Shown: positions 1,786-23,093 of the stretch, in pieces
Layout of the letters: the number at the start of each line of letters is the position of its first letter
How positions within the stretch are numbered: the stretch's first letter is position 1
Program-made: the position numbers and the translations under genes
The notes under the pieces: model-generated
The model's input: only the letters and a program-made list of their open reading frames with translations
Told to the model about the DNA's origin: nothing
Databases searched by the model: none
Assembly (NCBI GenBank): GCA_964552475.1
Contig: CAZKFZ010000007.1
Span: forward strand, 1 to 36,646
DNA from: an uncultured Candidatus Saccharibacteria bacterium
GTDB taxonomy: Bacteria > Patescibacteriota > Saccharimonadia > CAILAD01 > BJGX01
Direction of reading: 5' to 3'
DNA length: 36,646 bases

Positions 1786-3972
1786 TTATTTTGAGTATTT
1801 TTTACTTAGTTGAAATATTACACCTGCCACAGACACGGCAATTATAGCAAAGAGCGGAAAGGCATAGTCAGAAAAAGGACGACCGTCGGGTCTTTTGTAG
1901 TCTAGTTGGTTGGTAACAGAATTGTTTGGACTAATTGATGCTAGAATATTTTGCGAGCTAGTTGAGTTGGCGCCGTTCGATGAACTAATGTTGAGCTGAC
2001 TACCAAGTTTTAATAAATTATCCAGATTTTGGCTAGTAGCAAATTGTTGAGCTTCATCACCCATAGAACTATCCGATAAGCTTTGTTTGTTATAGATATT
2101 TCCTGCTGGCGTGTCTACTCCAAAACTACCTATCCAATTGCCAAACACATTTATAAACAGCACTCCAAACCAATCTGATATACTAAAGTTTGAATTTATT
2201 ATATTGCCAACATTTAACGCAATGTCTGCATCTCCACTTTGAGCGTCGCCAGCTTCAGTATTGTTGCCTACATTGGCATCACCACTAGAAGCATTGAGAT
2301 TTAAATTATTGTTTATTGTATTTACTGAGTTTGAGTTATTAATAGAACTACCTGACTGTTGCTGAGTATTTTTATCAACATCACCACCAATTAGCGCACT
2401 GGTTGCTCCTTGCGGTGCATCCATTATCAACCCTAGCCAGCTACCAAAAACATTTACAAATACCAGTACTGCGTTTTTAGCAATGACTTGGTGTCCGGTC
2501 AGGTTCAGTAAAGTCAGTCTAATATCTGACTTACCAGTTTTGGCATCGCCCGCTGAAGTATTATTTAACACATTAGCATCACCGCTCTTGGCGTCAGCTA
2601 CAATATTATTATTAATCGTAGATAGATCGTTAGTATTACTAATTGAATTTCCAGATCTATTAGTATCTATTGTGTTATTGGAGTTGGGACCGGTATTATT
2701 TATGGTTGCTAGATTGCCACTCGTGTGTTGTAATTCACCACTCGCCAGAAGTTGATTTAAAAAATCTTTTGAAAATAAAATATCACCGTTGAGATTACCG
2801 TATATATTTATAACTCCAAAAAATGATTTACCCGAACTAATGTATGAATCGATAAGATTCATTAAGTTTACCAAAACTCTAGCGTCACCGCTCTTAGCAC
2901 TACCAGCCTTAGTGTTACCAGTACAACTTTTGGCCATTCTTTCAGTACCTCCACCTGTTCCACCGTCATTTTGACTGCAACCAACGGTAGCGTCACCGCT
3001 CTGAGCATCTATAACAACATTGTTATTAATGTCATTATAGTTTGATGTATTTATCATCAAATTACCATCTTTATTGTCGCTTATAGTGTTATTTGAGTTG
3101 GGTCCGGTGCCATTAATACCATATTTAGACCCGCCTAGACTTTTATCACTATCGTAATTTGAGTTGCCGGTATCAAGCAGAATATCGCCATTAACGTCTC
3201 CGTAAAGGCTTTGTATAAAAGTTAGCATTTGTCCACCACTAATATTCCATGCCGACGCTAGTAGATTGAGAATGTTGGTAAGAACGTTAGTATCACCACT
3301 AATAGCGTCGCCTCCTTCGGTGTTATTACTGACCAATGAGTTACCAGAAATTGAGTATATGTTGAAGTAGTTATTAATTTCTGCCTTAGTATATAGATTA
3401 AATATTCCATTTGCACTATCGTTAGCATTGATTTGGTTGTTTGAGCCTTGTCCTGTCCCATTAATATTTGTACGGCCACCACCTGCCAACAAACCTAGTT
3501 GCTCTAAAAGACTAGGTGCAACAGGCTTGGGTGTAGCAACATATTTACCGCTAGCGGGATCAAATGTCCACTCTGTTGTACTCCATGTACTAGTAACGGG
3601 GTCGTAATAGTAATCAGGTTTTTGTTTGGGACGAGTCTGGTGTGTAATAGGATCCCAAATGTATTGTTCATTTTCCCAATTTCCAGTATCGGTATTCTGT
3701 ACGTAAGTCTGAGAATCTACACCATTGGGCTGAGTAGGCCCTGGTGGTGTTTGTGGGCCAGTAGTTGGAGTAACTGGATTTGTACCGACTTCGGATTCCG
3801 GGGGTGTTGATGGTGTTTGAGTGGTAGCTTGATCTGTTGTAATTGTTTCCGTGCTACCATCTTCGGTAGCTAAAACTATATTGGTTGGCTGAACTACTAC
3901 CAAAGCAAATATCATTGCACTAAGTATAAATTTACTAAGAACTTTTTGAACTTTTTTTGTACTAATGACCAT
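1786..3972 (-). CDS. large secreted/membrane-anchored repeat protein (four TGPNSNN...SGDA modules)
   Basis: The 728-aa ORF has an N-terminal hydrophobic anchor or signal (FILSAMIFALVVVQP) and a Thr/Pro-rich linker. Four ~80-115-aa Asn/Ser/Gly-rich modules follow. The C-terminus has a TM helix plus KKYSK. Confidence 0.85.
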   Translation of the reverse strand: MVISTKKVQKVLSKFILSAMIFALVVVQPTNIVLATEDGSTETITTDQATTQTPSTPPESEVGTNPVTPTTGPQTPPGPTQPNGVDSQTYVQNTDTGNWENEQYIWDPITHQTRPKQKPDYYYDPVTSTWSTTEWTFDPASGKYVATPKPVAPSLLEQLGLLAGGGRTNINGTGQGSNNQINANDSANGIFNLYTKAEINNYFNIYSISGNSLVSNNTEGGDAISGDTNVLTNILNLLASAWNISGGQMLTFIQSLYGDVNGDILLDTGNSNYDSDKSLGGSKYGINGTGPNSNNTISDNKDGNLMINTSNYNDINNNVVIDAQSGDATVGCSQNDGGTGGGTERMAKSCTGNTKAGSAKSGDARVLVNLMNLIDSYISSGKSFFGVINIYGNLNGDILFSKDFLNQLLASGELQHTSGNLATINNTGPNSNNTIDTNRSGNSISNTNDLSTINNNIVADAKSGDANVLNNTSAGDAKTGKSDIRLTLLNLTGHQVIAKNAVLVFVNVFGSWLGLIMDAPQGATSALIGGDVDKNTQQQSGSSINNSNSVNTINNNLNLNASSGDANVGNNTEAGDAQSGDADIALNVGNIINSNFSISDWFGVLFINVFGNWIGSFGVDTPAGNIYNKQSLSDSSMGDEAQQFATSQNLDNLLKLGSQLNISSSNGANSTSSQNILASISPNNSVTNQLDYKRPDGRPFSDYAFPLFAIIAVSVAGVIFQLSKKYSK
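2113..3471 (-). repeat. four protein-level tandem modules inside the 728-aa gene
   Basis: The modules start near aa 168, 285, 423 and 540. Each has (I)N(G/N)TG(P/Q)(N/G)SNN, then SGDAxV, then NTx(A/G)GDAxSGD, and ends in F(I/V)N(I/V)(F/Y)Gx(W/L)xG. Confidence 0.7.
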
Positions 3973-4078
3973 TTGCTTAAATCCTTTTTATGTATTATTT
4001 TCAATAATTACTGGCAGGCTCAAGAGCTAATAATAACCCTTAAGTACCATGCCGGTCTCTACTAATTTCAATTAGCTT

Positions 4079-4648
4079 CTAGTTTGAAATAGAGCTTACT
4101 GTAGAGAATGAACTTGTGTTAGTTACACTTCCTGAAACGGCAGATCCGCCAGTTGTGTTGTTGCTAACATTTGCGCTACCAGTTGAACCGCTTTGACTGT
4201 TAGTGTTAGTTACGCTAACAGTATTAACGTTAGTTACTACACTACTGTATGTGTTGTTGTAGCTAACTTGGTTGTTAGAGTTTGGTCCAGTAACGTTAAT
4301 GCTTGTGCTGTTAGGAGCCATAACTGGTCCACCTGCACCACCAGCGTTACTTACGTTGAACACGGTAGAAGCCATAGCGGTGTTATTAACATTACCACTC
4401 ATTGCAGAACCACCTGTGGTGTTGTTGCTAACATTTGCAGAACCACTAGTACCATTTTGGTTGTTACTGTTAATACCTAATGCGGTGTTAGCGTTAGTCT
4501 TAACAGATGCCCAAGTGTTAGATTCTGTAACTTGGTTGTTAGAGCTTGGTCCAGTTGTACCAATAACCACTGAACTTGCTGAAACAACACCAGCTGTTAA
4601 GCCGAGTGAAGCTACAGTAACTGCGATAGTTTGTAATACTTTCTTCAT
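4079..4648 (-). CDS. small secreted Asn/Ser/Thr-rich repeat protein (two copies of the TGPxSNN module)
   Basis: The 189-aa ORF has a strong Shine-Dalgarno GGAGGTG (4656-4662) and a signal peptide MKKVLQTIAVTVASLGLTAGVVSASS. Two ~75-aa modules are present. Confidence 0.9.
   Translation of the reverse strand: MKKVLQTIAVTVASLGLTAGVVSASSVVIGTTGPSSNNQVTESNTWASVKTNANTALGINSNNQNGTSGSANVSNNTTGGSAMSGNVNNTAMASTVFNVSNAGGAGGPVMAPNSTSINVTGPNSNNQVSYNNTYSSVVTNVNTVSVTNTNSQSGSTGSANVSNNTTGGSAVSGSVTNTSSFSTVSSISN
4082..4570 (-). repeat. intragenic tandem duplication (period 264 nt / 88 aa)
   Basis: Module 1 spans 4346-4570 and module 2 spans 4082-4306. Examples at protein level: TGPSSNNQV...SGSANVSNNTTGGSAMSG versus TGPNSNNQV...TGSANVSNNTTGGSAVSG. 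The repeat is also visible in DNA, e.g. ttggttgttagagtttggtccagt versus ttggttgttagagcttggtccagt. Confidence 0.85.
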
Positions 4649-4674
4649 AATTTTTCACCTCCTTTCAATTTTTC

Positions 4675-4822
4675 GAAACCTACTGCAATACTATCGTCAG
4701 ATTTTATACCACTAATATTACAGTTATACCTTCGGGCGTTAGTATTGCGGTAGGTTTCTAGATTTCGGGCCATTGAAACCCGACTACTATTATCAATATA
4801 GATAATACTGGTCGGGTTTCAA
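4675..4822. promoter_or_regulatory. two strong intergenic hairpins between the 200-aa and 189-aa surface-protein genes
   Basis: Hairpin B pairs 4675-4692 with 4741-4758 (18 positions, one T-G). Hairpin A pairs 4773-4784 with 4811-4822 (12 bp) and 4788-4794 with 4801-4807 (7 bp). Neither hairpin is followed by a clean U-tract on the minus strand. Confidence 0.5.
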
Positions 4823-4867
4823 TTTAGACCCGAGTTTATTAATTTACAATGTTAATCTACATTTTTT

Positions 4868-5470
4868 TTAAAAGCTTGCTATAAGACTTTTCTGTTTGTA
4901 CTTGCTGTAAACGTATGTTGCAGCTACTGCACTTGCAAGTGCCAAGAAAGTTGGTACCCAACTCCACTCTACGCTGGTTTTCTGCATTGGTCCTATTACA
5001 CCAGTTCTAGCGTTTAGTAGTGCATTCATAAGTTCACTTAGGCCACCGCCACCAGTTCGTGGCAACATTGCTACTGAGCTTTCTAGTCCACTAGTGCTTG
5101 TAGATCCAGCAATGTTGCTTGGGGTTTCGGCAGGACCTGCACCATAACCACCTTCAGGTAATGTGCCGTTAGTAATATTTACCGATGTGGCGCTACTAAA
5201 TGAATTGTTCACGCTACCACTTGTGGCGTCTCCACCAGTAGTGTTGCCATTTACGCTAGCAGGCCCGGTTGTGCCGCTCTGGACATTGGTATTAGATATG
5301 TTTGTATTTGTTACATTAGTAACCGTCTCTGTGTAAGTATTAGTTACCGTATAAACATTATTGCTACCCGGGCCAGTATTCGTAATAGTAGTAGTATCGG
5401 CGTGTGCCACACTAGCCATAGAAAGTGAAGCTACCAGGCTACTTATTAATATTGCTATTTTATATCTCAT
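4868..5470 (-). CDS. secreted repeat-module protein with LPRTG sortase-type motif
   Basis: The 200-aa ORF has an AGGAGG Shine-Dalgarno and the signal peptide ...SMASVAHA/D. It contains one TGPGSNN...GNTTGGDATSG module, LPRTG at 5051-5065, and a C-terminal TM helix followed by KYKQK. Confidence 0.9.
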   Translation of the reverse strand: MRYKIAILISSLVASLSMASVAHADTTTITNTGPGSNNVYTVTNTYTETVTNVTNTNISNTNVQSGTTGPASVNGNTTGGDATSGSVNNSFSSATSVNITNGTLPEGGYGAGPAETPSNIAGSTSTSGLESSVAMLPRTGGGGLSELMNALLNARTGVIGPMQKTSVEWSWVPTFLALASAVAATYVYSKYKQKSLIASF

Positions 5471-5480
5471 ATTTCCTCCT

Positions 5481-6347
5481 TTAAATTACAATTGTTTTAT
5501 TTTTAATGTTTGCTGTTACAAAAAAGGAGCTTGCAAAATAATATGCAAACCCTCTTTTTGTAGCAGCAAAAGCCATGTTTAAATCACCTAGATCAGATCG
5601 TGCCGCATTTGTAAAACCACTCTTACGCCAAGATCTCAATAACAAACTTAATAGCCCTAACGCCACAAGCATACTCAAGCCAATAAGAGCGACAGGATAA
5701 AATAACGCGCTACCAAGTGCAGCTTGAGAATCACCATTAGCTAGCTGCGGGTTAGTAACAATAATGTTTTGGATTGATTGAAAAACTGTTGCCAACATTC
5801 TCAACACTAAGCCTGTTCCATCTAGTGGAAGGTTGGTAGGAACTGGTGAAGATCCTGACGATGTTGAGCTTTGTAGTGTAGAGGGAAAATCACTCGTACT
5901 TACCTGTATAGGGTTGAAATAATCTGATTGTGAACTGGTGTAAAAATAATTACTCGAGTTAATATTTGTTTTCGAACTATTAGGTTTATCTAGTGCAGTA
6001 TTATCATTTAATTGTTTAGTGGTGGGCAATATTGAATTTCTAGATTGCAAAGTGCTTTCGCCAACATTAGTCCGTAAGTCTAGAGAAGTGTTAGTTGTAT
6101 CTCCTGTAGAGCTTGATTGGTAAGATGTGTGATTTTCTACTGTTCCCTGTGCATTTATTGAAACTTCAGTTATTTCGTGTGTACTTTCTGAAATTTGTTG
6201 AGACGACTGCTCAACAGTAGTTATGCTAGTGGTTTGTGAAGTATCATTTTCTGTTTGTGATTCTGCTAAAGCTTTACTGCTAAAAACAAGGGTGCAAGCC
6301 GAAGCAAGCAGTATCAAGAACAAAAAACGAGTTGTACGCACGAACAT
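5481..6347 (-). CDS. secreted Ser/Thr-rich membrane-anchored hypothetical protein
   Basis: The 288-aa ORF has a GGGGAG Shine-Dalgarno and a signal peptide ending KALA/ES. A long Ser/Thr/Asn/Gln-rich region is followed by a C-terminal TM segment (ALIGLSMLVALGLLSLLL) and a ~45-aa tail. Confidence 0.8.
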   Translation of the reverse strand: MFVRTTRFLFLILLASACTLVFSSKALAESQTENDTSQTTSITTVEQSSQQISESTHEITEVSINAQGTVENHTSYQSSSTGDTTNTSLDLRTNVGESTLQSRNSILPTTKQLNDNTALDKPNSSKTNINSSNYFYTSSQSDYFNPIQVSTSDFPSTLQSSTSSGSSPVPTNLPLDGTGLVLRMLATVFQSIQNIIVTNPQLANGDSQAALGSALFYPVALIGLSMLVALGLLSLLLRSWRKSGFTNAARSDLGDLNMAFAATKRGFAYYFASSFFVTANIKNKTIVI

Positions 6348-6544: not shown

Positions 6545-9091
6545 TTATTTGCTAATTTCGTCTTTTTCTGAATTAGATTCATCGGCTTTGACCTTCTGCA
6601 TTAACGCCACTGAAGCAATTTGATCTTCACCATTAAGTCGCATTATTCTTACACCCTGTGTAGCTCTGCCGATAATTGGGATAGCCGTTAATTTGAGGCG
6701 TATTACTTGACCTTGCTTTGAGATAAGTAATACATCGTCGTCGAGTTCGGGCACAATTCGAACATCGATTGCTTGACCAGTCTTGGCGGTTGCAACGCCA
6801 GCCTTAATACCAACACCACCTCTATTGTGACTACTAAATTGTTGAGACTTAGTGATTTTACCGTAGCCATTTTCCATAACTACTAGTAGTAAACCTTCGG
6901 ACTTACCAAGCACATCCATACCCACTACTGAGTCGCCGGGTCGCAAACGAATACCTCTCACGCCACGTGTAGCACGACCCATTGGCCTAGCATCTGCTTC
7001 TTTAAAACGGATCGCTTGTGCCTTGGCGGTAGATATAATTACGTCGTCGCCATCAGTAGTTTTCTTTACCCAATTTAATTGGTCGCCTTTGTCTAGCTTG
7101 ATACAAATTATGCCACTTTGACGAATATTTGCGAAATCTTCTATTTTTGTTTTCTTAATCACACCATTTTTAGTGGTCATAAATAGAAATTGTGTTTTCT
7201 CGTCTTTTTGCAGACTCAGCATAGACGTAACTCGTTCTTCTGGACCAAGATTTATAATGTTAACTATTGATTGACCTTTGGCGGTACGACTAGCAGGAGG
7301 AATTTCGTAAACTTTAAGTTTGAATACACGACCAAGACTAGTAAAGAAGAGTACTGTATCGTGTGTGCGACACTGCAAGACATGTTCGACCACGTCTTCT
7401 TCTTTAGTACTCATGCCTATCTTGCCTTTACCTCCACGGTTTTGACTGCTATAGGTATCGGCCGGAATACGTTTTACATAATTACCTTTGGTGAGACTCA
7501 CCACAACTTCTTCGTCCGGTATAAGATCCTCATCGCTAAAGTTACCAATGGCTTTTTTTATAATCTGCGTACGTCTTTTGTCGCCAAATTTTTCTTTAAT
7601 TTCAATAAGTTCTTCTGAAATAACTTTTAAAATATTTGCTTCGCTTCCAAGAATTTTTTTGAGCTTAGACATTAGGTCTTGTAATTCACTGTATTCGTCT
7701 TCAATTTTTTTACGCTCTAGCCCTGCTAGCGTTCTTAAGGGCATACCTAATATTGCATTGGCCTGTAGTTCGGATAGCTTAAATTTACTCATTAAGTTAG
7801 TTCTGGCTTCATCTTGAGTTTCGGATCCTCGAATGGTTGATATAACTTTATCTATTTGATCTAGAGCTATTCTCAAGCCTTCTAGTATGTGAGCACGGGC
7901 TTCAGCCTTGCGCAATTCAAACTCCGTGCGACGACGTACCACAACTTTACGGTGATCTATAAAGTGACGCAACACCATCTCAATATTTAGTACCCGCGGC
8001 TGTATACCATCGACAAGTGCTAGCATGTTGACATGAAAAGCTGTTTGCATGGGTGTCATTTTGTATAGTTGGTTGAGTATCTTACTGGCATAGGCATCTT
8101 TTTTCAACTCAATTACTACTCGTACCTCTTCTTTAGCTGACTCATCTCTAAGATCAGATATACCAACGATTTTTTTGTCTCTTACAAGGTCAGCGATCTT
8201 TTCTACTAAGGTAGATTTATTTGTCTGATATGGTACTTCAGTGATAATTATTTTCTCTCTACCTTTTTTATCTTGCTCAATATTTGCTACTGCCCGCATA
8301 GTAATTGAACCTTTGCCAGTACCATAGGCGTGAGCGATAGAGCCATCATCGAAAATTATCCCACCAGTAGGGAAGTCTGGACCTTTTATAATCTTACATA
8401 TATCTGCCACTGTAGCGTCTGGATTATCGATAATATACAGCACACCATCAACTACTTCAGTAAGATTGTGGGTAGGAATATTGGTAGCCATACCAACAGC
8501 AATACCTTGTACGCCATTTAGTAAAAGATTGGGCACTTTTGCAGGCAGTACCTTTGGCTCTTGTTGGGAGCCGTCGTAGTTGGGCATAAAGTCGACTGTG
8601 TCTTTGTCTATGTCGAGTAACATCTCTTCGGCAATACGAGTCATACGTGCTTCGGTGTATCGCATGGCAGCCGCACTATCACCGTCCATACTACCAAAGT
8701 TACCCTGACCATCTACGGTTTGGTAGCGCATTATCCAGTCTTGTGCCATACGTGCCATAGAATCGTAGATAGCCGTATCGCCGTGTGGGTGATACTTACC
8801 GATAACTTCACCAACGATAGTGGCAGACTTGCGATATTTTACATTATGGCGAAGACCTAGTGTACCCATAGCATATAGAATTCTACGGTGTACTGGCTTT
8901 AGTCCATCCCTTACGTCTGGTAAAGCCCTAGCTACTATTACACTCATAGCGTATTCTAGGTAACTTTTTTCCATTTCTGACTCTACTGTCTTTGGCGCTA
9001 TTAGACCAAATTCGGTCTTTTGCGGCTCAAAGTTGTTGTCGTCAAAAACTTCAAGGGGTTCTTCAATTGGTGGGTTTTGTTCTTTACTCAT
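6545..9091 (-). CDS. gyrA: DNA gyrase subunit A
   Basis: The 848-aa ORF contains KPVHRRILYAM, the active-site region AAMRYTEARM, and C-terminal beta-pinwheel repeats. It lies 3 nt downstream of gyrB. Confidence 0.97.
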   Translation of the reverse strand: MSKEQNPPIEEPLEVFDDNNFEPQKTEFGLIAPKTVESEMEKSYLEYAMSVIVARALPDVRDGLKPVHRRILYAMGTLGLRHNVKYRKSATIVGEVIGKYHPHGDTAIYDSMARMAQDWIMRYQTVDGQGNFGSMDGDSAAAMRYTEARMTRIAEEMLLDIDKDTVDFMPNYDGSQQEPKVLPAKVPNLLLNGVQGIAVGMATNIPTHNLTEVVDGVLYIIDNPDATVADICKIIKGPDFPTGGIIFDDGSIAHAYGTGKGSITMRAVANIEQDKKGREKIIITEVPYQTNKSTLVEKIADLVRDKKIVGISDLRDESAKEEVRVVIELKKDAYASKILNQLYKMTPMQTAFHVNMLALVDGIQPRVLNIEMVLRHFIDHRKVVVRRRTEFELRKAEARAHILEGLRIALDQIDKVISTIRGSETQDEARTNLMSKFKLSELQANAILGMPLRTLAGLERKKIEDEYSELQDLMSKLKKILGSEANILKVISEELIEIKEKFGDKRRTQIIKKAIGNFSDEDLIPDEEVVVSLTKGNYVKRIPADTYSSQNRGGKGKIGMSTKEEDVVEHVLQCRTHDTVLFFTSLGRVFKLKVYEIPPASRTAKGQSIVNIINLGPEERVTSMLSLQKDEKTQFLFMTTKNGVIKKTKIEDFANIRQSGIICIKLDKGDQLNWVKKTTDGDDVIISTAKAQAIRFKEADARPMGRATRGVRGIRLRPGDSVVGMDVLGKSEGLLLVVMENGYGKITKSQQFSSHNRGGVGIKAGVATAKTGQAIDVRIVPELDDDVLLISKQGQVIRLKLTAIPIIGRATQGVRIMRLNGEDQIASVALMQKVKADESNSEKDEISK

Positions 9092-9094
9092 AAT

Positions 9095-11170
9095 CTATAT
9101 ATCTAAGTTTTCTACTGATTTAGCATGAGTTTGAATGAAGTTCTTTCTTAAAGCCACTTCTTCGCCCATCAGTTTATTAAATATCGCATCGGCTTTTTCG
9201 GCATCAGCTACTGTAACTTTTAGTAGAATTCTATTTTCAGGATCCATAGTAGTTTCCCAGAGCTGATCGGCATTCATTTCACCCAAGCCTTTATAGCGCT
9301 GAATTGATAGGCCGGATATTTTTTGTGTTTCTTGTGACTCACTATCTAAATCTGTTGCTTCAAGTTCTTGTTCTTCTACTGCTAATTCGGCTAGATCTTC
9401 GGCGGTCTCAACACTTTTGGGCACATCTTCTTTAACCGCATCTTGAGGCTTAGTTTTGTCGGATTTTTTATCAGCGATACTACTTTTTAATTCATCAATT
9501 ATTTCATCGCGTTGAGTGTCTGAATAGGCATATTTGGAAGACTTGCCACGGCTTATTTTATATAGAGGTGGTTGAGCAATATAAATTTTACCTTCACTCA
9601 CAAGTTCTGGAAAGTGTCTGTAGAATAGGGTAAGTAATAAAGTTCTTATGTGAGCACCGTCAACATCGGCATCGGTCATAATTATTATTCTATGGTAACG
9701 TAATTTTGAGATATCAAATGTCTCGCCTATACCTGTACCCATTGCAATAATTAGATTTTTTACTTCATTGTTGGCCAGCATCTTGTCTAGTCTAGCTCTC
9801 TCTACGTTCAAAATTTTACCTCTCAAGGGTAGAATAGCCTGAAACTCCCTATCGCGACCCTGTTTGGCCGAGCCACCAGCTGAATCACCCTCTACAATAT
9901 ATACTTCACTTTTTTCGGCGTCTTTGCTTGAGCAGTCAGAAAGTTTGCCAGGTAAAGTCATACCTTCAAGTGCACCTTTTCGGATAACGCTATCGCGAGC
10001 AGCACGAGCTGCCAAGCGAGCACGAGCCGATAGTACACCTTTTCCGATAATCTTTCTGGCTTCGTTGGGGTTCTCTTCTAAGTAATAGCTAAGGTATTCG
10101 TTCAAAACCTTCTCTACTACAGTTCTAATTTCTGGATTACCCAATTTACCCTTTGTTTGGCCTTCAAATTGGGGATCGGGTAACTTCACAGAAATAACTG
10201 CAGTCAAACCCTCTCGCACATCATCACCGGTAAGATTTTCTTCTTTTTCTTTGATTAGTCCGTTTTTACGAGCATAGTCGTTAACTACTCTAGTTAAAGC
10301 TGAACGAAACCCAACTACATGAGTACCGCCCTCGGGGTTGTAGATGTTATTAGCAAAAGCCCTAAGTTGCTCATTAAAGCTATCGCAGTACTGCACCGCC
10401 AATTCAACATTAACTTCGCCAATGTTCTTATCTACATAAAAAGTGGGTTGGTTAAGTGCTTCTTTACCTTTGTTTAGGTGCTCTACATAGCTACGAATTC
10501 CGCCTTCAAAATAAAAGCCGTAGCTACGATTCTTTGACTGGTCAATTAAATTAACTCGAACCCCTTTTGTGAGATAGGCTTGATGTCTTAAATAGTCTAG
10601 AATGGTCTTATAGCTAAATTGAATAGTTTCAAAAATTTCAGCATCTGGTAAAAAGCTAATAGTAGTGCCTTGTTTATTGGTTTTGCCAATCTTTTTAATA
10701 TCACCTGTTGGCACGCCATTTTTATATTCTTGGCTGTACTCCACACCGTCTTTATAGACTACGGCTTTAAGATCGGTCGATAAAGCGTTTACAACGCTTA
10801 CACCCACACCGTGCAAACCACCCGAAACCTTATAACCACCACCACCAAATTTTCCTCCGGCGTGAAGCACAGTTAGGACTGTTTCTAGTGCAGATTTGCC
10901 AGTAGTCTTGTGTTTATCGACAGGTATACCGCGACCATTATCGGTACAGCTCACCCAACCATTTTCGTGCAACACAACTTCGACTTCGTTGGCTTCACCA
11001 GCAATTGCTTCGTCTATGGAGTTATTTACAAGTTCCCAAACAAGATGATGTAAGCCCTCTGGGCCAGTACCACCAATATACATACCAGGGCGTTTTCTTA
11101 CCGGCTCAAGACCTTCTAATACTTGAATCTGTGCGGCTGAATATTGATCTTTGGTTGGCTTTTTTGCCAT
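9095..11170 (-). CDS. gyrB: DNA gyrase subunit B (with an acidic insertion before the QRYKGLGEM motif)
   Basis: The 691-aa ORF contains GLHHLVWELVNNSIDE, GGLHGVG, EGDSAGGSAKQGRDR, PLRGKILNVE and QRYKGLGEM. Confidence 0.97.
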   Translation of the reverse strand: MAKKPTKDQYSAAQIQVLEGLEPVRKRPGMYIGGTGPEGLHHLVWELVNNSIDEAIAGEANEVEVVLHENGWVSCTDNGRGIPVDKHKTTGKSALETVLTVLHAGGKFGGGGYKVSGGLHGVGVSVVNALSTDLKAVVYKDGVEYSQEYKNGVPTGDIKKIGKTNKQGTTISFLPDAEIFETIQFSYKTILDYLRHQAYLTKGVRVNLIDQSKNRSYGFYFEGGIRSYVEHLNKGKEALNQPTFYVDKNIGEVNVELAVQYCDSFNEQLRAFANNIYNPEGGTHVVGFRSALTRVVNDYARKNGLIKEKEENLTGDDVREGLTAVISVKLPDPQFEGQTKGKLGNPEIRTVVEKVLNEYLSYYLEENPNEARKIIGKGVLSARARLAARAARDSVIRKGALEGMTLPGKLSDCSSKDAEKSEVYIVEGDSAGGSAKQGRDREFQAILPLRGKILNVERARLDKMLANNEVKNLIIAMGTGIGETFDISKLRYHRIIIMTDADVDGAHIRTLLLTLFYRHFPELVSEGKIYIAQPPLYKISRGKSSKYAYSDTQRDEIIDELKSSIADKKSDKTKPQDAVKEDVPKSVETAEDLAELAVEEQELEATDLDSESQETQKISGLSIQRYKGLGEMNADQLWETTMDPENRILLKVTVADAEKADAIFNKLMGEEVALRKNFIQTHAKSVENLDI

Positions 11171-11676: not shown

Positions 11677-12282
11677 TTAGATTTTTTCTGGGTGACGAAA
11701 ACGATGAAATATAAACTCTACCACTGCACCCAAGACTGCACCAACCAGCAAGAACAGTACCAGTGTAATGCTTGGGATTAAATATCCGTAATATACAGCA
11801 ACTATATACACAACCAAACCAAGTACTAGGCCTGTGACTGATCCACCAATAAGCACCGAGGGTCTAAATATTGTTTTACCAGCAACATCACTTACGCTTT
11901 CTACGACCGGGTTGTGAACAAATTTTGAAAAAGTTCTAGATCTCTTAGGTAGTTGGTTTTGGACTTTTTTTATCTCTTTTTTATATGCAGTTTTTTTCTC
12001 AGCCTTGGTGTACTTGGCAGGAGGTTTTTCTTCGCGTTCTGGCTTCTCGTGCTTTTCTTTTTCTGCTTTTTCCTTTTCCTTGGCTAGTTCAAGTTTGTGC
12101 TTTTCTTTTTCTGCTCTCAAGACTTTCTCGGCTTCGTGGCCCTTTTGAGCAAGCTCACTTTCTTTTTTTTGCACCTCTGCTTTTATAGGCTTTTTTTCTT
12201 TAGATTTAGATAGCTCTAGATTCTTTAGTTCCGGCTTCTCGGCATTAGACTTTTCGTGTTTTTCATTAATTTTTTCAGACAT
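11677..12282 (-). CDS. hypothetical membrane protein with a Lys/Glu-rich N-terminus and two C-terminal TM helices
   Basis: The 201-aa ORF has a GGAGTG Shine-Dalgarno inside the end of the upstream gene and starts 2 nt after the 779-aa gene. Its charged KE-repeat region is followed by hydrophobic helices. Confidence 0.75.
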   Translation of the reverse strand: MSEKINEKHEKSNAEKPELKNLELSKSKEKKPIKAEVQKKESELAQKGHEAEKVLRAEKEKHKLELAKEKEKAEKEKHEKPEREEKPPAKYTKAEKKTAYKKEIKKVQNQLPKRSRTFSKFVHNPVVESVSDVAGKTIFRPSVLIGGSVTGLVLGLVVYIVAVYYGYLIPSITLVLFLLVGAVLGAVVEFIFHRFRHPEKI

Positions 12283-12284
12283 TT

Positions 12285-14624
12285 TTAGTTCACTCCATCA
12301 CTTAATGTTTCTACAAGTTCTATCTCTCTTTTGAGTAAGCGATTTCTGAAGAAAAGATATAATGAGCTGGCGGCAAAGAAACCAATAAATACCAACGGAA
12401 CAGCGTCCGATCCAGTTCTAGGTAGAGGTAGGTTAGAACTAATAAGGTTGAGGCTACATTCAATTCGCTTTGCTGGATTAACATAGAGCGGGGTTTTTAC
12501 TAGCTTGCCAAAAAACTCATCTTGTACCATACAGTCGTAGTTAGTCGTATCGGTTGGTTTATGGGCCGTTGTTGGGAGTGGGTTTTTTAGCTGAACGGTG
12601 AATTCTTTTGAAACAAAAACTAGATTACCTTCGCTAGGTGTAGGCGGAATATCTACGGCTGGCCATTTTAGTATGGTTTGGCCATCAGTTTGCTCTACAC
12701 TTGCCCCACCTGCATCCACTAAATCAGCATACTCAAGTATATCTGATATATTGTCTTGGAAAACGAAGTTACTCATGGTGGTTGCGCCAGTGTTGCTCAC
12801 ACCAATAGTATAAGTAAGTTTATCACCTGCTCTTGCAGTGGCATCATTAGCATCGGTAGGCAAGCCACCACTCGTTAGTAGAGTGAGGTTCTTTACAGTC
12901 TTTTGATAAATAGTATTTTCAACATTTATCGTAACTGTACATGTAGCATTTGTTGAAGTTGCATCATTATCGTTGGCCACTACTTCAACTCGCGCGGTAT
13001 ATCTACCTCCTTGGTTATAAGTATGTTGCAGTGCTTGAGTGAGTTGACTAGACTGCACATTTTGATTTGTGCCATCCCCAAAGTCAAACTTATACTCTTT
13101 GACAGTTGTATTGTCTACTTGTGCCTGTGCGGTCAGGGTGGTATTGAGTGGTGCAGTATCTGAAGAAGCCGGGTTGGCTGTTAGTCGCACACAGCTGAAC
13201 GTTTTTGCGGGCTCTTCACAACGAGGATCACCAACTGGGATACCTGGCCTACATTCGTCTTGTCTGGTCACACTAAATTGGGCCCAGCAATCTTTTGTAT
13301 CAGCAACCGCGACGTTATTTGCATTATAAACTCTTAACGTAATTAGGTAATTGCCTGGCTCTGTGCGCCTAAACGAATCGGCATTAAATGATACAGGGGG
13401 TTCACCCACAGGATCTCTTAGCGTGGTATTGTTATGAACAATCTTTGCAACCCCAGGTACAGGCAGGTAAAACTTACCATTCATCTTGATAGTTTGTGAT
13501 GTCTCATTAGGTGTCTCTTGATAAAGTGCATATTCATATTTGCTAGGTCTAGGGTCTGGACCAGATCCATCTGTGACCGCTGCTTTACCTGTTAACACTG
13601 GCGTAAAGGGCGCAACTCCTGTGTTGTTTTGCATTTTTAAATCATTACAAACTAGTTGTTTTGGGGTAGGAGGTGGCTGAACTATAATCCTAATGGCACA
13701 GTTTCCGGTTGCGCTACCGCGAGCCAATACGGCCGTTCCGTTATTATTAAATGACACCCAAAGTCTTACAGTAAAAGTTCCAGCATTAGGAAAGGCAAAT
13801 GTTCTTCTGTTGGGATCTTGGAACTTACCTGTTGGATTATCAGAGATACCGTTCGCCCGCTTAAGATCCCCGATTTGTTCGCCCAAATCTGTTCCGTTTG
13901 GTTTATACACTCCATAGGCCATATTAACAAGTTCACCTGGTGAAACGTTTTCGCCATTTGCTAAACCACGAAAACCAATCTCGGTGCCAGCCTGTACGGT
14001 AAATGGCCCAGTTGTACCAAGGGTGGAATCAAGCCTCTGACAGCTAATATCTTTTGTAGGTGGGGGAGTGGTTCGTTTTAAGATGATGTTACCGCAATCG
14101 AGTACTACCCCCCATTCATACCACTGACCAGTCTGGGTATCTTGAATTTTATCTTTACCTATAATGGCGCTAAGACAATTAGAATTCCAACGAGATTCTG
14201 CTGTGCCAATATATATGCCCGGTTGAAATTGGGTTGAGTTACCAAAATTTTCTCTACCCATAGATAGCCAGTTTTGGCCTTTGCAGGCTGAACCAACTGT
14301 TGCCTCTTGCATTTTAGCTTGAGATATCTGTAATCTATTAAAAACCTGCTGTATACCTGCAGGATTTTGTTGCCAAACCTTACTTATAAGTGTGCTTTTG
14401 GTAAATGGTCCGCCTGGAATAAGATCATTTGCCGATGATGCATAACTAGGCTTTGGGGGAGCAACAAAGGTTATGAATTGGAATATTAGTAAGCCTACCA
14501 TTAAGACCGATGCGAGCCTACGTGTGGCGGTTTCTTTTGAAAGTCTTTTAGCGTAAAACGCTACTTTACTTTTTGATATTGCACCAATAGAAAATTTCGT
14601 TACTATGTCTTTGAAGTTACTCAT
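12285..14624 (-). CDS. LPXTG-anchored surface protein with PKD-like and DUF11-like Ig-fold repeats
   Basis: The 779-aa ORF has an N-terminal TM/signal (LMVGLLIFQFITFVAPP...SYA). A PKD signature YKFDFGDGT...HTYNQGGRYTARVEV and a DUF11-like segment GDKLTYTIGVSNTGATT are present. A canonical sorting signal LPRTG (12411-12425) is followed by a hydrophobic stretch and RNRLLKRE. Confidence 0.88.
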   Translation of the reverse strand: MSNFKDIVTKFSIGAISKSKVAFYAKRLSKETATRRLASVLMVGLLIFQFITFVAPPKPSYASSANDLIPGGPFTKSTLISKVWQQNPAGIQQVFNRLQISQAKMQEATVGSACKGQNWLSMGRENFGNSTQFQPGIYIGTAESRWNSNCLSAIIGKDKIQDTQTGQWYEWGVVLDCGNIILKRTTPPPTKDISCQRLDSTLGTTGPFTVQAGTEIGFRGLANGENVSPGELVNMAYGVYKPNGTDLGEQIGDLKRANGISDNPTGKFQDPNRRTFAFPNAGTFTVRLWVSFNNNGTAVLARGSATGNCAIRIIVQPPPTPKQLVCNDLKMQNNTGVAPFTPVLTGKAAVTDGSGPDPRPSKYEYALYQETPNETSQTIKMNGKFYLPVPGVAKIVHNNTTLRDPVGEPPVSFNADSFRRTEPGNYLITLRVYNANNVAVADTKDCWAQFSVTRQDECRPGIPVGDPRCEEPAKTFSCVRLTANPASSDTAPLNTTLTAQAQVDNTTVKEYKFDFGDGTNQNVQSSQLTQALQHTYNQGGRYTARVEVVANDNDATSTNATCTVTINVENTIYQKTVKNLTLLTSGGLPTDANDATARAGDKLTYTIGVSNTGATTMSNFVFQDNISDILEYADLVDAGGASVEQTDGQTILKWPAVDIPPTPSEGNLVFVSKEFTVQLKNPLPTTAHKPTDTTNYDCMVQDEFFGKLVKTPLYVNPAKRIECSLNLISSNLPLPRTGSDAVPLVFIGFFAASSLYLFFRNRLLKREIELVETLSDGVN

Positions 14625-14737: not shown

Positions 14738-17239
14738 CTAACCCATTCGTGACGGAGTTGGCTCAGTAGAAGTTGGGCTTTTCGCGCTACTAATAGCGTC
14801 AAGGCTAGCAGCTACCTCAGCAGCTACTTGGTCTTTGGGCCTACCGAATTTTGAACGAGATAAATCACGCATTGCACTTTGTAGTTCAGTGTTTACTACC
14901 TCGTTATCTATAGGTGGATAGCCTTTCATTGAAAACGGCGTTACTGGTTTTCCATTGGCAATTATCTTTGCAATTGCATAGTGATTGGGAATATTGGCAA
15001 TATCGCTGGCTCCAAATTGGGGCTCAAACTGTTTAGCCAAGTATTCTGCATCTTCGTTGCCGACTCTATGTATTATCATACTACCAACGTTGCCAAATAC
15101 TGCATCTCTTATCTGTTCATCAATCTGTTCTATATATTGATTCGCAACAGTAAGGTTGAAGTGATACTTTCTGGCTTCAGATAATATTGTTGCAAAGCTA
15201 TCGGTGGCAATATTTTGAAATTCATCTACATATAGACCAAAATCCACACGATCATCCTCGGGTATATCAGCACGACTCATAGCAGCGACCTGTAGTTTAA
15301 TAACAAATATCATACCAAGAAGCTTGGCATTTAGCTCACCCATAAGGCCTTTACTGAGGTTTACTATTAGAATCTTGTTGTTATCCATTATGTCGCGAAA
15401 ATTAAATGCCGACTTCTTTTGTCCAATAATATTACGAAGCATTTCGTTGTTGGCTACTGCACCAAATTTTGAAGCAAAATAACCCAACATATCGGACTTT
15501 GTTCGTGCATCTGTTTGAGCCATCTCGTTTGTCCAAAAAGCTTGTACGGTAGGGTCGTCTAAGTATTTGAATTTTTTCTTAAGGTATTCGTCGTCGGTAA
15601 AGACTCTCGGTACCTCAATGTAAGATCCGCCCTCGGGGTCTGCCATCACGGTAAGTGCTGCGTTTCTGAACCAGTTTTCAAACTGTGGGCCAATCATGCC
15701 TTGATGCTGGGGATCGTAAAGCTTATAGAGCATACTTATTATCTCTTGAACGATAAAGTCTTTTTGCTCTGGTTTATTCCGGTCGTATTCCATAATATTT
15801 AAGCCCATAGGAAACTCGGTATCGCCGGGGGAGAAATATATAACATCTTCAGCTCTATCTGCAGGTATTCTACCCAAAAGTCTTTCTGCTTCATCACCAT
15901 TCGGATCAATAAAACAAAAACCTCTCCCTGCTGCCGCATCTTGTATCATCATATTGGTGAGCAATACAGATTTACCTGTACCGGTTTGACCAATTATGTA
16001 GGTGTGACGGCGTTTGTCATCTTTAGTAAGAAATATTGGTGTCTCATGACCACGAAATATATTCAAGCCAATTCTAATACCTTCAGTTGGTAAACCGCCA
16101 GGTGCAGCAACTTCTTTGGCAGCCTTGCGGTCTAAGTTAACAGCTATACCAACTACTTCACTTGGTAGATGAAATATAGTAGCAAGCTCTACAGAGTTTA
16201 GTACCATATTTTTTTTATTGGCTGGAAAAAACCTAAATATAAAATCTGTGGCTACTTTCTGGGGTTCCTTGGCAGATTTATATTTAAAGCTGTTAGCACC
16301 GCCTTGGCTAAGTTGGGCAAAGCCTAAGTTTATATCTTGAATAATTACTTTTGCTCTTATTGGATCGTCAGAGCTAGCAATAATTCTAATGGAGGTTTCA
16401 AAAGCTGGTGACTTAGCTTTTTGTTCAATCATTTCGGATTTTTTTTGATCAATTGCATCGGGCTGTTTTTCTTGGGATTGTTTATTATCGTCTTCAGACT
16501 TAGTCTTAAATGGTGCTTTAAGAACATAAGAAACTGCATCCATAGCTTTACTTGAAGGGTCGTCATTTTTTTTCTTAGGGTCCAAGACTTGTTTGGCTCG
16601 CTTAATCGCTTGCTTAGTCCATTCTGAACCGGCCGGTCTTATAAGTATTTGAATGGCCGCACCTTCATGATCGTTGAGGTTAGAAAGTCCAGAGAGCAAT
16701 CCTGTTAGTGCATCACTATCGCTTTCACGATAAGTGTTTATGGGCAAATAACTTTCCTTGGATAGCTCTAGCTCGCCACCTTGTACTCCGGCAATTTTGC
16801 TAACTTTTGAGAATATATTCACATCTTGAGCTTTTTCTATTTGTATATCAGAATAGGCCGAAGTTAGTGACTTCTGTACCGCACTTAATAATGTTACGGG
16901 TACGGCAATGTAGAAGTTTATTTGCTTACCATCGGCCACAATCTCAAAACAAACATGTTTTTTACCATAAAATTTAGATTTTTCAGTCGCAATTCCAGAA
17001 AGCAAATTAAAAACTCCCTCGGCTTTTGAGATATTCTCTTTAATTAGTTCGCGACTATCTCTAGTACCTTCTTCAGCTTCTTGTGGTGGTAGCTTAACTA
17101 GTAGTGGAACCATTTTTAGCGAACGTTCAATATCTTTACTTCGTCTTGATATCTTTCTGTACCAGAAAAACCCCACCGTACTAACGCAGGCAACAAAAAC
17201 AATAAATAAGCTTATTGAGAATAACAAAAACTGTGACAT
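14738..17239 (-). CDS. membrane-anchored FtsK/HerA-superfamily ATPase, VirD4/TraD-like type IV coupling protein homologue
   Basis: The 833-aa ORF has an N-terminal TM helix and Walker A GQTGTGKS followed by FIDPNGDEAERL...PMGLN. Walker B LYVDEFQN and ARKYHFNLTVANQYIEQ complete the layout typical of TraD/TrwB/VirD4-type proteins. Confidence 0.8.
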   Translation of the reverse strand: MSQFLLFSISLFIVFVACVSTVGFFWYRKISRRSKDIERSLKMVPLLVKLPPQEAEEGTRDSRELIKENISKAEGVFNLLSGIATEKSKFYGKKHVCFEIVADGKQINFYIAVPVTLLSAVQKSLTSAYSDIQIEKAQDVNIFSKVSKIAGVQGGELELSKESYLPINTYRESDSDALTGLLSGLSNLNDHEGAAIQILIRPAGSEWTKQAIKRAKQVLDPKKKNDDPSSKAMDAVSYVLKAPFKTKSEDDNKQSQEKQPDAIDQKKSEMIEQKAKSPAFETSIRIIASSDDPIRAKVIIQDINLGFAQLSQGGANSFKYKSAKEPQKVATDFIFRFFPANKKNMVLNSVELATIFHLPSEVVGIAVNLDRKAAKEVAAPGGLPTEGIRIGLNIFRGHETPIFLTKDDKRRHTYIIGQTGTGKSVLLTNMMIQDAAAGRGFCFIDPNGDEAERLLGRIPADRAEDVIYFSPGDTEFPMGLNIMEYDRNKPEQKDFIVQEIISMLYKLYDPQHQGMIGPQFENWFRNAALTVMADPEGGSYIEVPRVFTDDEYLKKKFKYLDDPTVQAFWTNEMAQTDARTKSDMLGYFASKFGAVANNEMLRNIIGQKKSAFNFRDIMDNNKILIVNLSKGLMGELNAKLLGMIFVIKLQVAAMSRADIPEDDRVDFGLYVDEFQNIATDSFATILSEARKYHFNLTVANQYIEQIDEQIRDAVFGNVGSMIIHRVGNEDAEYLAKQFEPQFGASDIANIPNHYAIAKIIANGKPVTPFSMKGYPPIDNEVVNTELQSAMRDLSRSKFGRPKDQVAAEVAASLDAISSAKSPTSTEPTPSRMG

Positions 17240-17248
17240 ATATGTTCC

Positions 17249-17707
17249 TTAATTGACATCTAAGTTAAATCGCTTTTTTAAATAAGAACTACTTATGTGA
17301 TTTTGGTAGTCATCTTCCACGGAGGGATCGTCCTTTTCCTTCTCTATTATCTCTTCTGTCTTTTTCACCCAAGGCTCTTCTATTAAGTCGACATCTTCAG
17401 CTTCAAGTTGATCAATAGATTTTTTAAACATTTCTCTTGCTGTGGTACTATCGGTATGAACCTGTTGGGCTTGAGGGGGTTGGGGGTTTACAACGGCTGT
17501 GGCTGTAGTTACAGGCTGTTGATTGGTAAAAGGAGCTACAGGAGTCGCTTGCGTTATCGACTCAGGTTGTTTCATAGTAGGCTGAATTTCTTGGCCAGGA
17601 GGTGCAACTTCTAAATTTTGGTTGGGCTGCGCTTTTGTGGGCTCGGGCGAGGGGTTACGCAAATTAGAATCAACATCAGTAGCAAGATGAAATCTCGGGG
17701 TATTCAT
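17249..17707 (-). CDS. hypothetical protein with a Pro/Gln/Thr-rich disordered N-terminus and an acidic helical C-terminus
   Basis: The 152-aa ORF ends 9 nt before the ATPase start. A TATAAT box lies 7 nt upstream of its ATG. Confidence 0.65.
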   Translation of the reverse strand: MNTPRFHLATDVDSNLRNPSPEPTKAQPNQNLEVAPPGQEIQPTMKQPESITQATPVAPFTNQQPVTTATAVVNPQPPQAQQVHTDSTTAREMFKKSIDQLEAEDVDLIEEPWVKKTEEIIEKEKDDPSVEDDYQNHISSSYLKKRFNLDVN

Positions 17708-17714
17708 AACAAAT

Positions 17715-17720
17715 ATTATA
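17715..17720 (-). promoter_or_regulatory. -10 box placed for a leaderless transcript (152-aa gene)
   Basis: The minus strand reads TATAAT, then 7 nt (ATTTGTT), then ATG at 17707. There is no room for a Shine-Dalgarno sequence. Confidence 0.4.
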
Positions 17721-17740
17721 CCAGTTATGTTTGGTATCTA

Positions 17741-22099: not shown

Positions 22100-22100
22100 A

Positions 22101-23093
22101 TTAAAATTGCTCCAAAAAACTAAATCTTGGGCGCCATAACTCACGCAGATCTGTCAAGCCATATTTTATTACCGCAAACCTCTCTGCTCCCCATCCAAAC
22201 GCAAACCCTGTGTATATATTAGGGTCTACCCCACCGTTTCTTAATACTTGGGGATGTACCATACCCGCACCGCCCAACTCTAGCCATTTTTCGTTGTACC
22301 AACAGTCTAACTCAACAGATGGTTCGGTATAAGGAAAATAGCTCGCTCTAAATCTTATCTCAACATCAGGTCCGAGTAGCCCCCTTACGACAGTCAGTAA
22401 TGTTCCTTTAAGATCAGACATCGAAACACCCTCACCTACTACCAAGCCTTCCACCTGGTTAAAAATCCAGGCATGTGTAGCATCTTCATCTTCATTTCTA
22501 AAAACTCTACCGGGCACAATGATTTTATATGGCGGTTTATTTTGCTCCATAAATCTTACTTGCATACCAGATGTATGTGATCGTGGCAAAAGGTTCATTT
22601 TGCCATTATCAATATAAAAAGTATCCTGCATATCTCTAGCTGGATGTGAATCAGGCATGTTGAGAGCTTCAAAGTTATACCAATCAGATTCTATCTCTGG
22701 ACTATCGACAATTGCAAATCCCAACTCTGTGAATATCTTATAAGTCTGAGACAACACCAAGCTTGTAGGGTGAAAGTGGCCGTAGCTATACCCATATATA
22801 CTATTTAGCAAACTAAGATCTTTAGGTTCATAAAAGCTAGTTGTGTTTATACGAGTTAAGGCCTCTCTAAACATTGCTTCAAGTTTATTTCTCGCTTGGT
22901 TTAGATTTTTACCTGCATTTACCTTATCAGCTAATGTAAGATTTGGAAGGTTCCTTAACTCCTTCGATAAAGCACTATCTTTTCCTAAATAATTAGATTT
23001 AGCCTTATCAAGATCACTTTTCGAACCAGCTTTTTCAAAAGCAATTCTAGCAACTTCTATATAATCATTTGAGATTGATTTAAAATTATTCAT
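22101..23093 (-). CDS. pheS: phenylalanine--tRNA ligase alpha subunit
   Basis: The 330-aa ORF contains class II motifs such as FRASYFPYTEPSVELD and GAGMVHPQVL...GFAFGWGAERF. Confidence 0.96.
   Translation of the reverse strand: MNNFKSISNDYIEVARIAFEKAGSKSDLDKAKSNYLGKDSALSKELRNLPNLTLADKVNAGKNLNQARNKLEAMFREALTRINTTSFYEPKDLSLLNSIYGYSYGHFHPTSLVLSQTYKIFTELGFAIVDSPEIESDWYNFEALNMPDSHPARDMQDTFYIDNGKMNLLPRSHTSGMQVRFMEQNKPPYKIIVPGRVFRNEDEDATHAWIFNQVEGLVVGEGVSMSDLKGTLLTVVRGLLGPDVEIRFRASYFPYTEPSVELDCWYNEKWLELGGAGMVHPQVLRNGGVDPNIYTGFAFGWGAERFAVIKYGLTDLRELWRPRFSFLEQF

Follow-up and report, generated by a model that had tools for sequence, protein, structure and literature searches.

Analysis of a 36,646-nt DNA stretch from an uncultured Candidatus Saccharibacteria bacterium (hereafter the window, which is one whole 36.6-kb contig, CAZKFZ010000007.1) revealed a homologous 77-residue module in three neighbouring proteins, p189, p200 and p728 (named after their lengths in residues), which carry two, one and four copies, respectively. 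The p189-type and p728-type genes were adjacent at every testable locus, and the module matched no characterized family. We tentatively interpret these genes as encoding a Saccharibacteria-specific envelope system, a reading that we regard as plausible and just short of probable, in which the secreted p189 may assemble with the anchored p728 and p200 into a surface layer or fibre.

A module shared by p189, p200 and p728

The module proteins are encoded together with a fourth protein, p288, by four consecutive minus-strand open reading frames (ORFs), all of which were confirmed:

1786-3972, minus strand: p728, with a cleavable signal (aa 1-35), a P/T-rich linker, a W/Y-rich domain, four modules, a stalk and a C-terminal transmembrane segment
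4079-4648, minus strand: p189, with a signal peptide, module 1 (aa 28-102), module 2 (aa 116-189) and no anchor; the proposed abundant subunit
4868-5470, minus strand: p200, with a signal peptide, one module (aa 28-101), a G/A/S linker, the LPRTG motif (aa 136-140), a 30-aa insert, a transmembrane segment and a basic tail
5481-6347, minus strand: p288, an S/T-rich type I membrane protein with a signal and a transmembrane segment at about aa 209-240, without the module

An initial annotation, made from the sequence alone, had described these genes as starting with signal or anchor sequences and as rich in Asn, Ser, Thr and Gly, and both descriptions were borne out: each protein has a basic n-region at its start and a hydrophobic stretch behind it, and the N+S+T+G content amounted to 62% in p189, 48% in p200, 43% in p728 and 40% in p288. 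A hidden Markov model (HMM) of 77 positions, made from both halves of 60 two-module homologues, matched p189 twice (60.9 and 66.7 bits for modules 1 and 2), p200 once (59.3 bits) and p728 four times (25-43 bits, with module starts at aa 169, 286, 422 and 537), thus over a range of 25-67 bits. As a control for composition, each protein was shuffled 200 times; the best shuffles scored ≤6 bits versus 43-67 bits for the real proteins, and p288, at 5 bits, was at the level of noise. Homology of the module across p189, p200 and p728 is real, and its copy numbers are those first proposed.

The TGPxSNN part of the module lies at aa 32 and 120 of p189, aa 32 of p200 and aa 173, 289 and 427 of p728, and the NNTxGG(D/S)AxSG part at aa 75 and 163 of p189 and aa 216, 470 and 570 of p728. 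The consensus reads I-x2-TGP-x-S-x-N ... V-x-N-x-N ... N-x-N-x-Q-x-A-x-SG-x-A-x-V-x2-NTTGGDATSG-x-A-x-N ... V-x-[VI]-x-N, and several of its G, N, T and A residues do not vary among the 60 homologues. The charge of the module varies: the mature p189 of the window contains no Asp and one Glu, and GDA-rich modules occur in other lineages. Profile autocorrelation inside the module revealed no significant short sub-repeat (maximum z 2.7), and the 77-residue module itself appears to be the repeat unit. The beta-solenoid fold that had been suggested for it is not supported, because there is no sub-repeat, the strands in the predicted structure of p728 reach 20 residues and a structure search returned no beta-helix match.

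The initial claim of novelty, meaning that the module matches no characterized family, was upheld by every search made. Pfam, NCBIfam (June 2026) and PHROGs yielded no match near threshold for the module proteins and their sub-domains, the best scores of the four proteins (OCRE, E 0.058; Peptidase_C107, E 0.019) being far below the cut-offs, and sequence searches of the PDB with single proteins and with family profiles yielded no match. Foldseek with the p728 model gave a best E of 1.8 against the PDB, where beta-helix matches had E ≥ 1.8 and template modelling scores ≤ 0.08, and a best E of 5e-3 against BFVD, with a template modelling score of 0.05 and a root-mean-square deviation of 44 Å. 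Literature searches on Saccharibacteria and Patescibacteria, covering sortases, S-layers, surface proteomics, amyloid, curli and cryo-electron tomography, turned up no account of the module family. Three specific candidates were rejected: a phage tail fibre or structural protein (no PHROGs match, and the BFVD result above), an S-layer protein recognizable by domain (no SLH, CWB2 or similar domain in Pfam or NCBIfam) and RTX repeats (GGxGxDxUx, HemolysinCabind model; no Pfam match, and a mature p189 free of Asp).

The features within the three module proteins are as follows:

4343-4567, minus strand: p189 module 1
4082-4303, minus strand: p189 module 2, 61% identical to module 1 in both nucleotides and amino acids
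5051-5065, minus strand: LPRTG motif of p200
3523-3741, minus strand: conserved aromatic (W/Y-rich) beta-hairpin domain of p728, aa 78-150, with invariant P82, W106 and W130 and a predicted local distance difference test score (pLDDT) of 83-93
3175-3468, minus strand: p728 module 1 with hydrophobic extension, aa 169-266 (from the HMM and the structure model)
2773-3117, minus strand: p728 module 2 with extension, aa 286-400, including a variable 20-aa insert (HMM)
2428-2709, minus strand: p728 module 3 with extension, aa 422-515, FVNVFG (HMM and motif)
2113-2364, minus strand: p728 module 4 with extension, aa 537-620, FINVFG (HMM and motif)
1792-1872, minus strand: C-terminal transmembrane helix and basic tail of p728 (structure model and transmembrane profile)

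The two module copies of p189 are offset by 88 aa, which agrees with the 264-nt spacing of the tandem duplication proposed at first, yet they share merely 61% nucleotide identity, and Tandem Repeats Finder detected no DNA-level repeat in the cassette, the p189 copies included. The duplication is ancient: the two-module form is common to the whole family. In this family an N-terminal signal was predicted for 58 of 60 members and a C-terminal transmembrane segment for only 2 of 60, and the terminal residue is Asn in 76 of 80 orthologues. Since it has a signal peptide and no anchor, p189 is predicted to be exported as a free protein. In the window lineage the mature protein contains one Lys, no Arg and no Cys, and standard tryptic proteomics would therefore miss it.

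p728 belongs to a family with 45 invariant columns among 119 homologues, of which 115 have an N-terminal signal and 107 a C-terminal transmembrane segment with a basic tail; P29 and A35 hardly vary, in keeping with a conserved cleavage site. Pfam gave only noise-level scores for the W/Y-rich domain. Behind each module comes a conserved hydrophobic hairpin (..LVFVNVFGxWxGLI..), and these hairpins are the most conserved part of the protein; internal 17-aa windows with a Kyte-Doolittle hydropathy ≥ 1.8 occur in 102 of the 119 family members. The motif F(I/V)N(I/V)(F/Y)G, which had been described as ending every module, was found in its exact form only after module 3 (FVNVFG, aa 505) and module 4 (FINVFG, aa 606), modules 1 and 2 having the looser forms FIQSLYG and VINIYG. 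At the C-terminal side, a disordered S/N-rich stalk (aa 635-698) leads to the transmembrane helix and basic tail (aa 701-727).

The AlphaFold2 (AF2) model of p728, computed from 119 homologues, had a mean pLDDT of 70 and a predicted template modelling score of 0.58, with values above 90 in the module cores and hydrophobic hairpins. It consists of helices at aa 5-27 and 701-727, disordered linkers at aa 29-75 and 635-698, and elsewhere beta-strands only, some of them 20 residues long; the prediction was folded and all-beta, and not the disordered chain that the initial annotation had named as evidence against its proposal. Because of its signal peptide and the C-terminal transmembrane helix behind a disordered stalk of ~65 aa, p728 is expected to be rooted in the membrane and to expose its modules on the outside. 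For p189 (60 homologues) the AF2 model was all-beta but unreliable (pLDDT 40) and was not used for fold searches. This contrast between the free modules of p189, at 40, and the hairpin-backed modules of p728, above 90, suggests that free modules may be completed in trans.

Distribution, conservation and expression signals

Searches with p200 recovered 87 proteins, all unnamed or 'hypothetical', in two architectures: one module with LPxTG and a transmembrane segment, and two modules within ~195 aa. With p728 the yield exceeded 764 proteins, ~650-740 aa in length and all lacking Pfam domains. An exhaustive search with the module profile over 1.84 billion cluster representatives (clusters at 50% identity) matched 2,390 clusters with E ≤ 1e-3, of which 1,419 reached E ≤ 1e-10; all of these clusters are unnamed and devoid of Pfam domains. 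Among them are secreted variants carrying 3, 4 and ~6 modules in tandem, which shows that modules can be strung together. One ~6-module variant (579 aa, L085:8001-9740, on a contig of 51% GC) has a W/Q/Y-rich insert; its gene lies beside that of an LPNTG-anchored protein and near Pup-ligase-like and cellulose-synthase-like glycosyltransferase family 2 (GT2) genes.

A scan of one genome per species found a p728 relative in at least 212 species genomes, which is a lower bound because the scan uses exact peptide patterns. Among the best 80 of the 212, the genome label was Saccharibacteria, Saccharimonadia or Saccharimonadales in 71; the remaining 9 were unclassified, carried other Candidate Phyla Radiation (CPR) labels or, in one case, consisted of a short contig binned with an actinobacterium. 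A 6.7-kb contig (L022, JAODAV010000056.1) that carries a Saccharibacteria-type pair is assigned to a metagenome-assembled genome (MAG) with the label Rhodoglobus sp. (Actinomycetota); mis-binning of a contig from an epibiont is the probable reason, and the find may hint at a host association. In Ca. M. amalyticus, QHN42381.1, a 'hypothetical protein' of 71.6 kDa that ranks 29th in abundance (10.64898/2026.03.03.709456, supplement), is a candidate four-module homologue on mass alone.

In all 78 loci that could be tested (those with enough upstream sequence, from about 80 species), the four-module gene is immediately preceded by a two-module gene of the same orientation, at a median gap of ~115 nt, and p728 homologues have four modules in 80 of 84 loci. 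Judged from this arrangement, the p189-p728 pair is the conserved functional unit, with the LPxTG paralogue and a sortase as a frequent second operon. The window clade differs in having p288 and then p200 directly upstream of the pair. Co-localization in related genomes, which the initial annotation had made a condition of its proposal, holds for the pair and not for the four-gene cassette, p288 having only three relatives among 5.8 billion proteins and homologues in 5 of 84 loci.

p200 is a probable sortase substrate or wall anchor. Its LPRTG motif was located at aa 136, as annotated, and LP[RK]TG is kept in all close orthologues; the protein is free of Cys. Taking a canonical sorting signal as a hydrophobic segment and basic tail directly after the motif, ~35-40 aa from the C-terminus, the sister-clade orthologues are canonical, with LPNTG, a hydrophobic stretch and YRR, the motif lying 38-42 aa from the end. 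Co-occurrence with sortase genes, a check proposed at the outset, was found in other lineages: in 22 of the 34 loci with a one-module LPxTG gene in their flanks, a sortase gene begins 5-37 nt behind that gene, and in 17-19 loci a GT2 glycosyltransferase gene follows the sortase gene. These adjacent sortases keep the His/Cys/Arg signature and fit no NCBIfam class model (≤27 bits versus class-specific cut-offs of 140-166 bits).

p288 sits 10 nt upstream of p200, at a place where other lineages hold a different anchored protein of ~175 aa, and it is lineage-restricted and outside the module family. Two candidate identities for it, a divergent sortase and an equivalent of the ~175-aa protein, were unsupported. 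The latter protein, N-terminally anchored, Ser-rich and with the motif VTVNGQDVPVPENGTVHK, has its gene next to and upstream of the two-module gene in 61 loci (e.g. L004:6637-7164), had no Pfam or NCBIfam match and is absent from the window.

The closest relatives of the window are MAGs labelled Candidatus Saccharibacteria, and identities of the cassette proteins and two neighbours to the nearest (L006) and the next (L005) relative were as follows:

gyrA: 97.5% to L006, 92.4% to L005
p189: 94.8% to L006, 90.2% to L005
DUF212: 88.7% to L006, 60.7% to L005
p200: 82.5% to L006, 58.0% to L005
p728: 63.3% to L006, 74.3% to L005
p288: 56.4% to L006, 41.8% to L005

The comparison points to strong constraint on p189 and to diversification of the anchored proteins. 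The conservation of p189 comes close to that of gyrA, which argues against p189 as a fast-evolving host-recognition surface. p728 was nearer to L005, although gyrA of L005 is more distant than that of L006, and its modules 1-2 were 87-97% identical to L005 versus 27-77% to L006; variation was concentrated in the P/T linker, the module 2 insert and the stalk. p728 is thus mosaic, which suggests recombination at this surface gene and would make it a better candidate than p189 for a variable recognition surface.

The translation signals and RNA structures of the cassette are the following:

4655-4665, minus strand: Shine-Dalgarno (SD) site AAAGGAGGTGA of p189, -14.1 kcal/mol, the strongest in the window
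5475-5482, minus strand: SD site AAAGGAGG of p200, -11.6 kcal/mol, the second strongest in the window
4676-4833, minus strand: structured leader RNA between p200 and p189, with stem-loops 4765-4833 and 4676-4758 and the SD site unpaired
3973-4078, minus strand: p189-p728 spacer with a stem-loop, a possible attenuator or stabiliser (minimum free energy (MFE) -24.3 kcal/mol, z -2.3)

Among the 26 ORFs of the window, p189 and p200 ranked first and second in SD strength, as had been noted for the two small genes, and six relatives share the GGAGGTG of the p189 site without change. For the 219-nt p189 leader the MFE was -75.1 kcal/mol (z -9.3), and 12 of the 26 pairs of its first stem-loop were preserved by compensatory changes in the six relatives; an Rfam scan of the whole window gave no match. 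The best sigma-70-like match lies at 4795-4822, and the call of a p189 promoter is ambiguous because this match overlaps the first stem-loop. In other lineages the spacers around the two-module gene had a median z of -3.1 upstream (n=50) and -2.7 downstream (n=74). A strong SD site and flanking stem-loops would be expected of a differentially stabilized, highly expressed cistron. They also bear indirectly on the high abundance that, together with a two-dimensional lattice, characterizes S-layer proteins. Elsewhere in the window, many genes (start codons at 34378(+), 17707(-), 25465(-), 27005(-), 30528(-) and 34303(-)) have a TATAAT-like box 5-10 nt before the start codon and lack an SD site, in contrast to p189 and p200, which suggests frequent leaderless mRNAs.

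The cassette is flanked by gyrB-gyrA (6545-11170) on one side and a DUF212/divergent-PAP2 gene (841-1650) on the other, and these housekeeping neighbours recur in several relatives. In the cultured oral S. epibionticum, DUF212 directly follows gyrA, with no cassette at that position, and none of its supplementary sequences contained the module motif. Upstream of gyrB, the region 11677-14624 (-) and 14738-19219 (-) encodes a 201-aa protein without a family match and a 779-aa PKD/DUF11 surface protein, which resemble SEML1_0143 and SEML1_0144 beside gyrB in S. epibionticum, as well as a VirD4/TraG-like coupling protein and a YkuD L,D-transpeptidase. Further on, the 954-aa phenylalanyl-tRNA synthetase beta chain encoded at 19280-22144 (-) contains a peptidase domain of the NlpC/P60 type (PF00877, E 8e-13), located between its B3_4 and B5 domains (aa 461-547).

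Assembly at the cell surface and alternative interpretations

In the envelope system that we tentatively favour, p189 would be the abundant subunit and, after Sec export, would bind its anchored paralogues through module-to-module beta-sheet contacts, giving a proteinaceous surface layer or short fibre with p728 as the membrane tether and p200 as the peptidoglycan tether. Such a structure might serve envelope integrity or contact with a host cell; for host attachment, the role first proposed, the evidence speaks neither for nor against. Conservation of p189 close to that of gyrA is as expected of a tightly packed self-assembling subunit, and the poorly modelled free module beside a confident hairpin-backed one fits small modules that need a partner. 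Several observations weigh against such an assembly. The structure models are monomeric, and polymerization of p189, p728 and p200, or contacts among them, is something that we infer; the expression level of p189 is likewise read from sequence signals alone. No short sub-repeat was detected, nor did the fold match that of any known fibre, solenoid or S-layer protein. In the p200 of the window the distance from LPRTG to the C-terminus is 64 aa, the transmembrane segment and KYKQK being preceded by a conserved insert of 30 aa, and no sortase was found among the genes of the 36.6-kb window. A one-module gene was near the pair in just 34 of ~82 loci and may encode a non-obligatory partner, and the ~175-aa anchored protein that precedes the pair in most lineages has a role that the model does not explain.

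Somewhat doubtful, at about the same level as the ligand-binding alternative discussed below, is the bolder claim that the proteins represent a new class of self-assembling surface polymer, neither amyloid-repeat nor pilin nor known S-layer fold, in which the 'incomplete' polar beta-module of an abundant p189-type subunit would be completed in trans on four-module and one-module templates, and in which environmental Saccharibacteria would owe their main outer coat or fibre, the surface that meets hosts, to the resulting polymer. If such a coat or fibre were real, it would establish a new principle of assembly at monoderm surfaces; it would also become a candidate for determining host contact or recognition by phages, and a useful marker of environmental Saccharibacteria. 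Very few envelope components have been identified for Saccharibacteria and other CPR bacteria, which live attached to host bacteria; the Pam pili, a surface-filament system, came to light as late as 2026, when filament structures were solved directly for one cultured Saccharibacterium (10.64898/2026.03.03.709456). A family so large, strictly syntenic, uncurated and without a fold match points to a substantial blind spot in envelope biology.

The module could instead be a lectin-like domain that binds the cell's own wall polysaccharide or a host glycan, which would leave three independent binders and no polymer, and we consider this rather unlikely. Its polar, N/T/S/G-rich composition and the W/Y-rich domain of p728, of a kind often used in carbohydrate binding, would suit such a function, as would the GT2 gene that follows the sortase gene in 17-19 loci, the glycan-binding nature of essential surface proteins of cultured Saccharibacteria (PMC10633639) and the mosaic, fast-evolving p728, as for a surface-interaction protein. 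However, neither sequence nor fold matched a lectin or carbohydrate-binding family, module charge is not conserved, and ligand binding would explain neither the strict adjacency of the two-module and four-module genes in 78 of 78 loci nor why the free protein has the best expression signals and the slowest evolution. Improbable to a greater degree is a housekeeping trans-envelope scaffold of p728 and p189 (with the ~175-aa protein in most lineages) that has no role in host contact and serves membrane-to-wall spacing or wall growth and division. Anchors reaching both membrane and wall, a position amid gyrB, gyrA and DUF212, the housekeeping rate of p189 and the four modules fixed in p728, which suggest a defined architecture and not a variable adhesin stalk, all speak for it, whereas the direct gyrA-DUF212 junction in S. 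epibionticum means that the cassette is not universal in the phylum, and quick divergence of p728, p200 and p288, with a mosaic p728, would be unusual in core envelope machinery.

We regard it as very improbable that p728 is a membrane-active, host-attacking protein whose four hydrophobic beta-hairpins insert into a host membrane or envelope, with p189 in a helping or shielding role. Saccharibacteria live as epibiotic parasites (PMC10633639), the hairpins are the most conserved part of p728 and strongly hydropathic internal windows occur in most of the family (102/119), but AF2 buries the hairpins as high-confidence strands of a folded body, p728 is held in its own membrane by the C-terminal transmembrane helix, and no pore-forming toxin was matched in sequence or fold. 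The strongly biased composition and high HMMER bias terms might also make the shared motifs a low-complexity artefact, an explanation to which we attach next to no probability: it is refuted by the shuffle scores, the invariant positions in 60-119 homologues and the strict synteny, and sits poorly with 2,390 matching clusters. The envelope assembly of p189 on its anchored paralogues remains our preferred, if tentative, interpretation.

Comparison with known surface systems

One organizational parallel is with the chaplins of Streptomyces, which comprise the long ChpA-C and the short ChpD-H and share a hydrophobic chaplin domain of ~40 aa. In both cases small secreted and sortase-anchored paralogues share one small beta-forming domain in differing copy number, and anchored forms tether, or here would tether, the assembly of secreted forms to a Gram-positive-type wall. 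The module described here, in contrast, is 77 aa long and extremely polar, the Pfam Chaplin model was not matched, and a membrane-anchored four-module protein is always encoded beside the secreted one. Curli consist of the major subunit CsgA and the nucleator CsgB. Their structure has been reviewed (PMC10192328). The likeness lies in an Asn/Gln/Gly/Ser-rich, all-beta secreted subunit with a surface-attached paralogue as a possible template; unlike in curli, Curlin_rpt was not matched (Pfam, E ≤ 1), there is no 19-23-aa sub-repeat and no beta-solenoid fold match, and the envelope is monoderm, without CsgG/E/F-type export genes nearby. The Csc/WxL clusters of Lactobacillales, which encode small LPxTG-anchored, membrane-anchored and small or large secreted proteins sharing one domain, follow the same gene-cluster logic, but no WxL, DUF916 or DUF3324 match was found here and the shared domain is unrelated. 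Since every membership test against chaplins, curli and Csc/WxL was negative, we take these likenesses to be analogies of organization only.

Sortase-assembled Gram-positive pili resemble the second operon in that an LPxTG protein is encoded beside a dedicated sortase gene; they differ in that the adjacent sortase here fits no class model, and the two-module protein, having no LPxTG, cannot be polymerized by a sortase. The essential adhesins of S. epibionticum are VCBS, dockerin and FN3 proteins, different from the module family (PMC10633639). The Pam pilins of Ca. Mycosynbacter amalyticus are proteins of 39-55 kDa with two Ig-like domains and paired cysteines, assembled by donor-strand exchange and encoded beside ATP-synthase genes (bioRxiv 10.64898/2026.03.03.709456), and by this description the Cys-free proteins analysed here, with their other sizes and neighbourhood, are set apart from them. 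What the two sets have in common is that they are CPR-restricted, Sec-exported and previously 'hypothetical' proteins, of which the Pam proteins form an extracellular structure in a Saccharibacterium.

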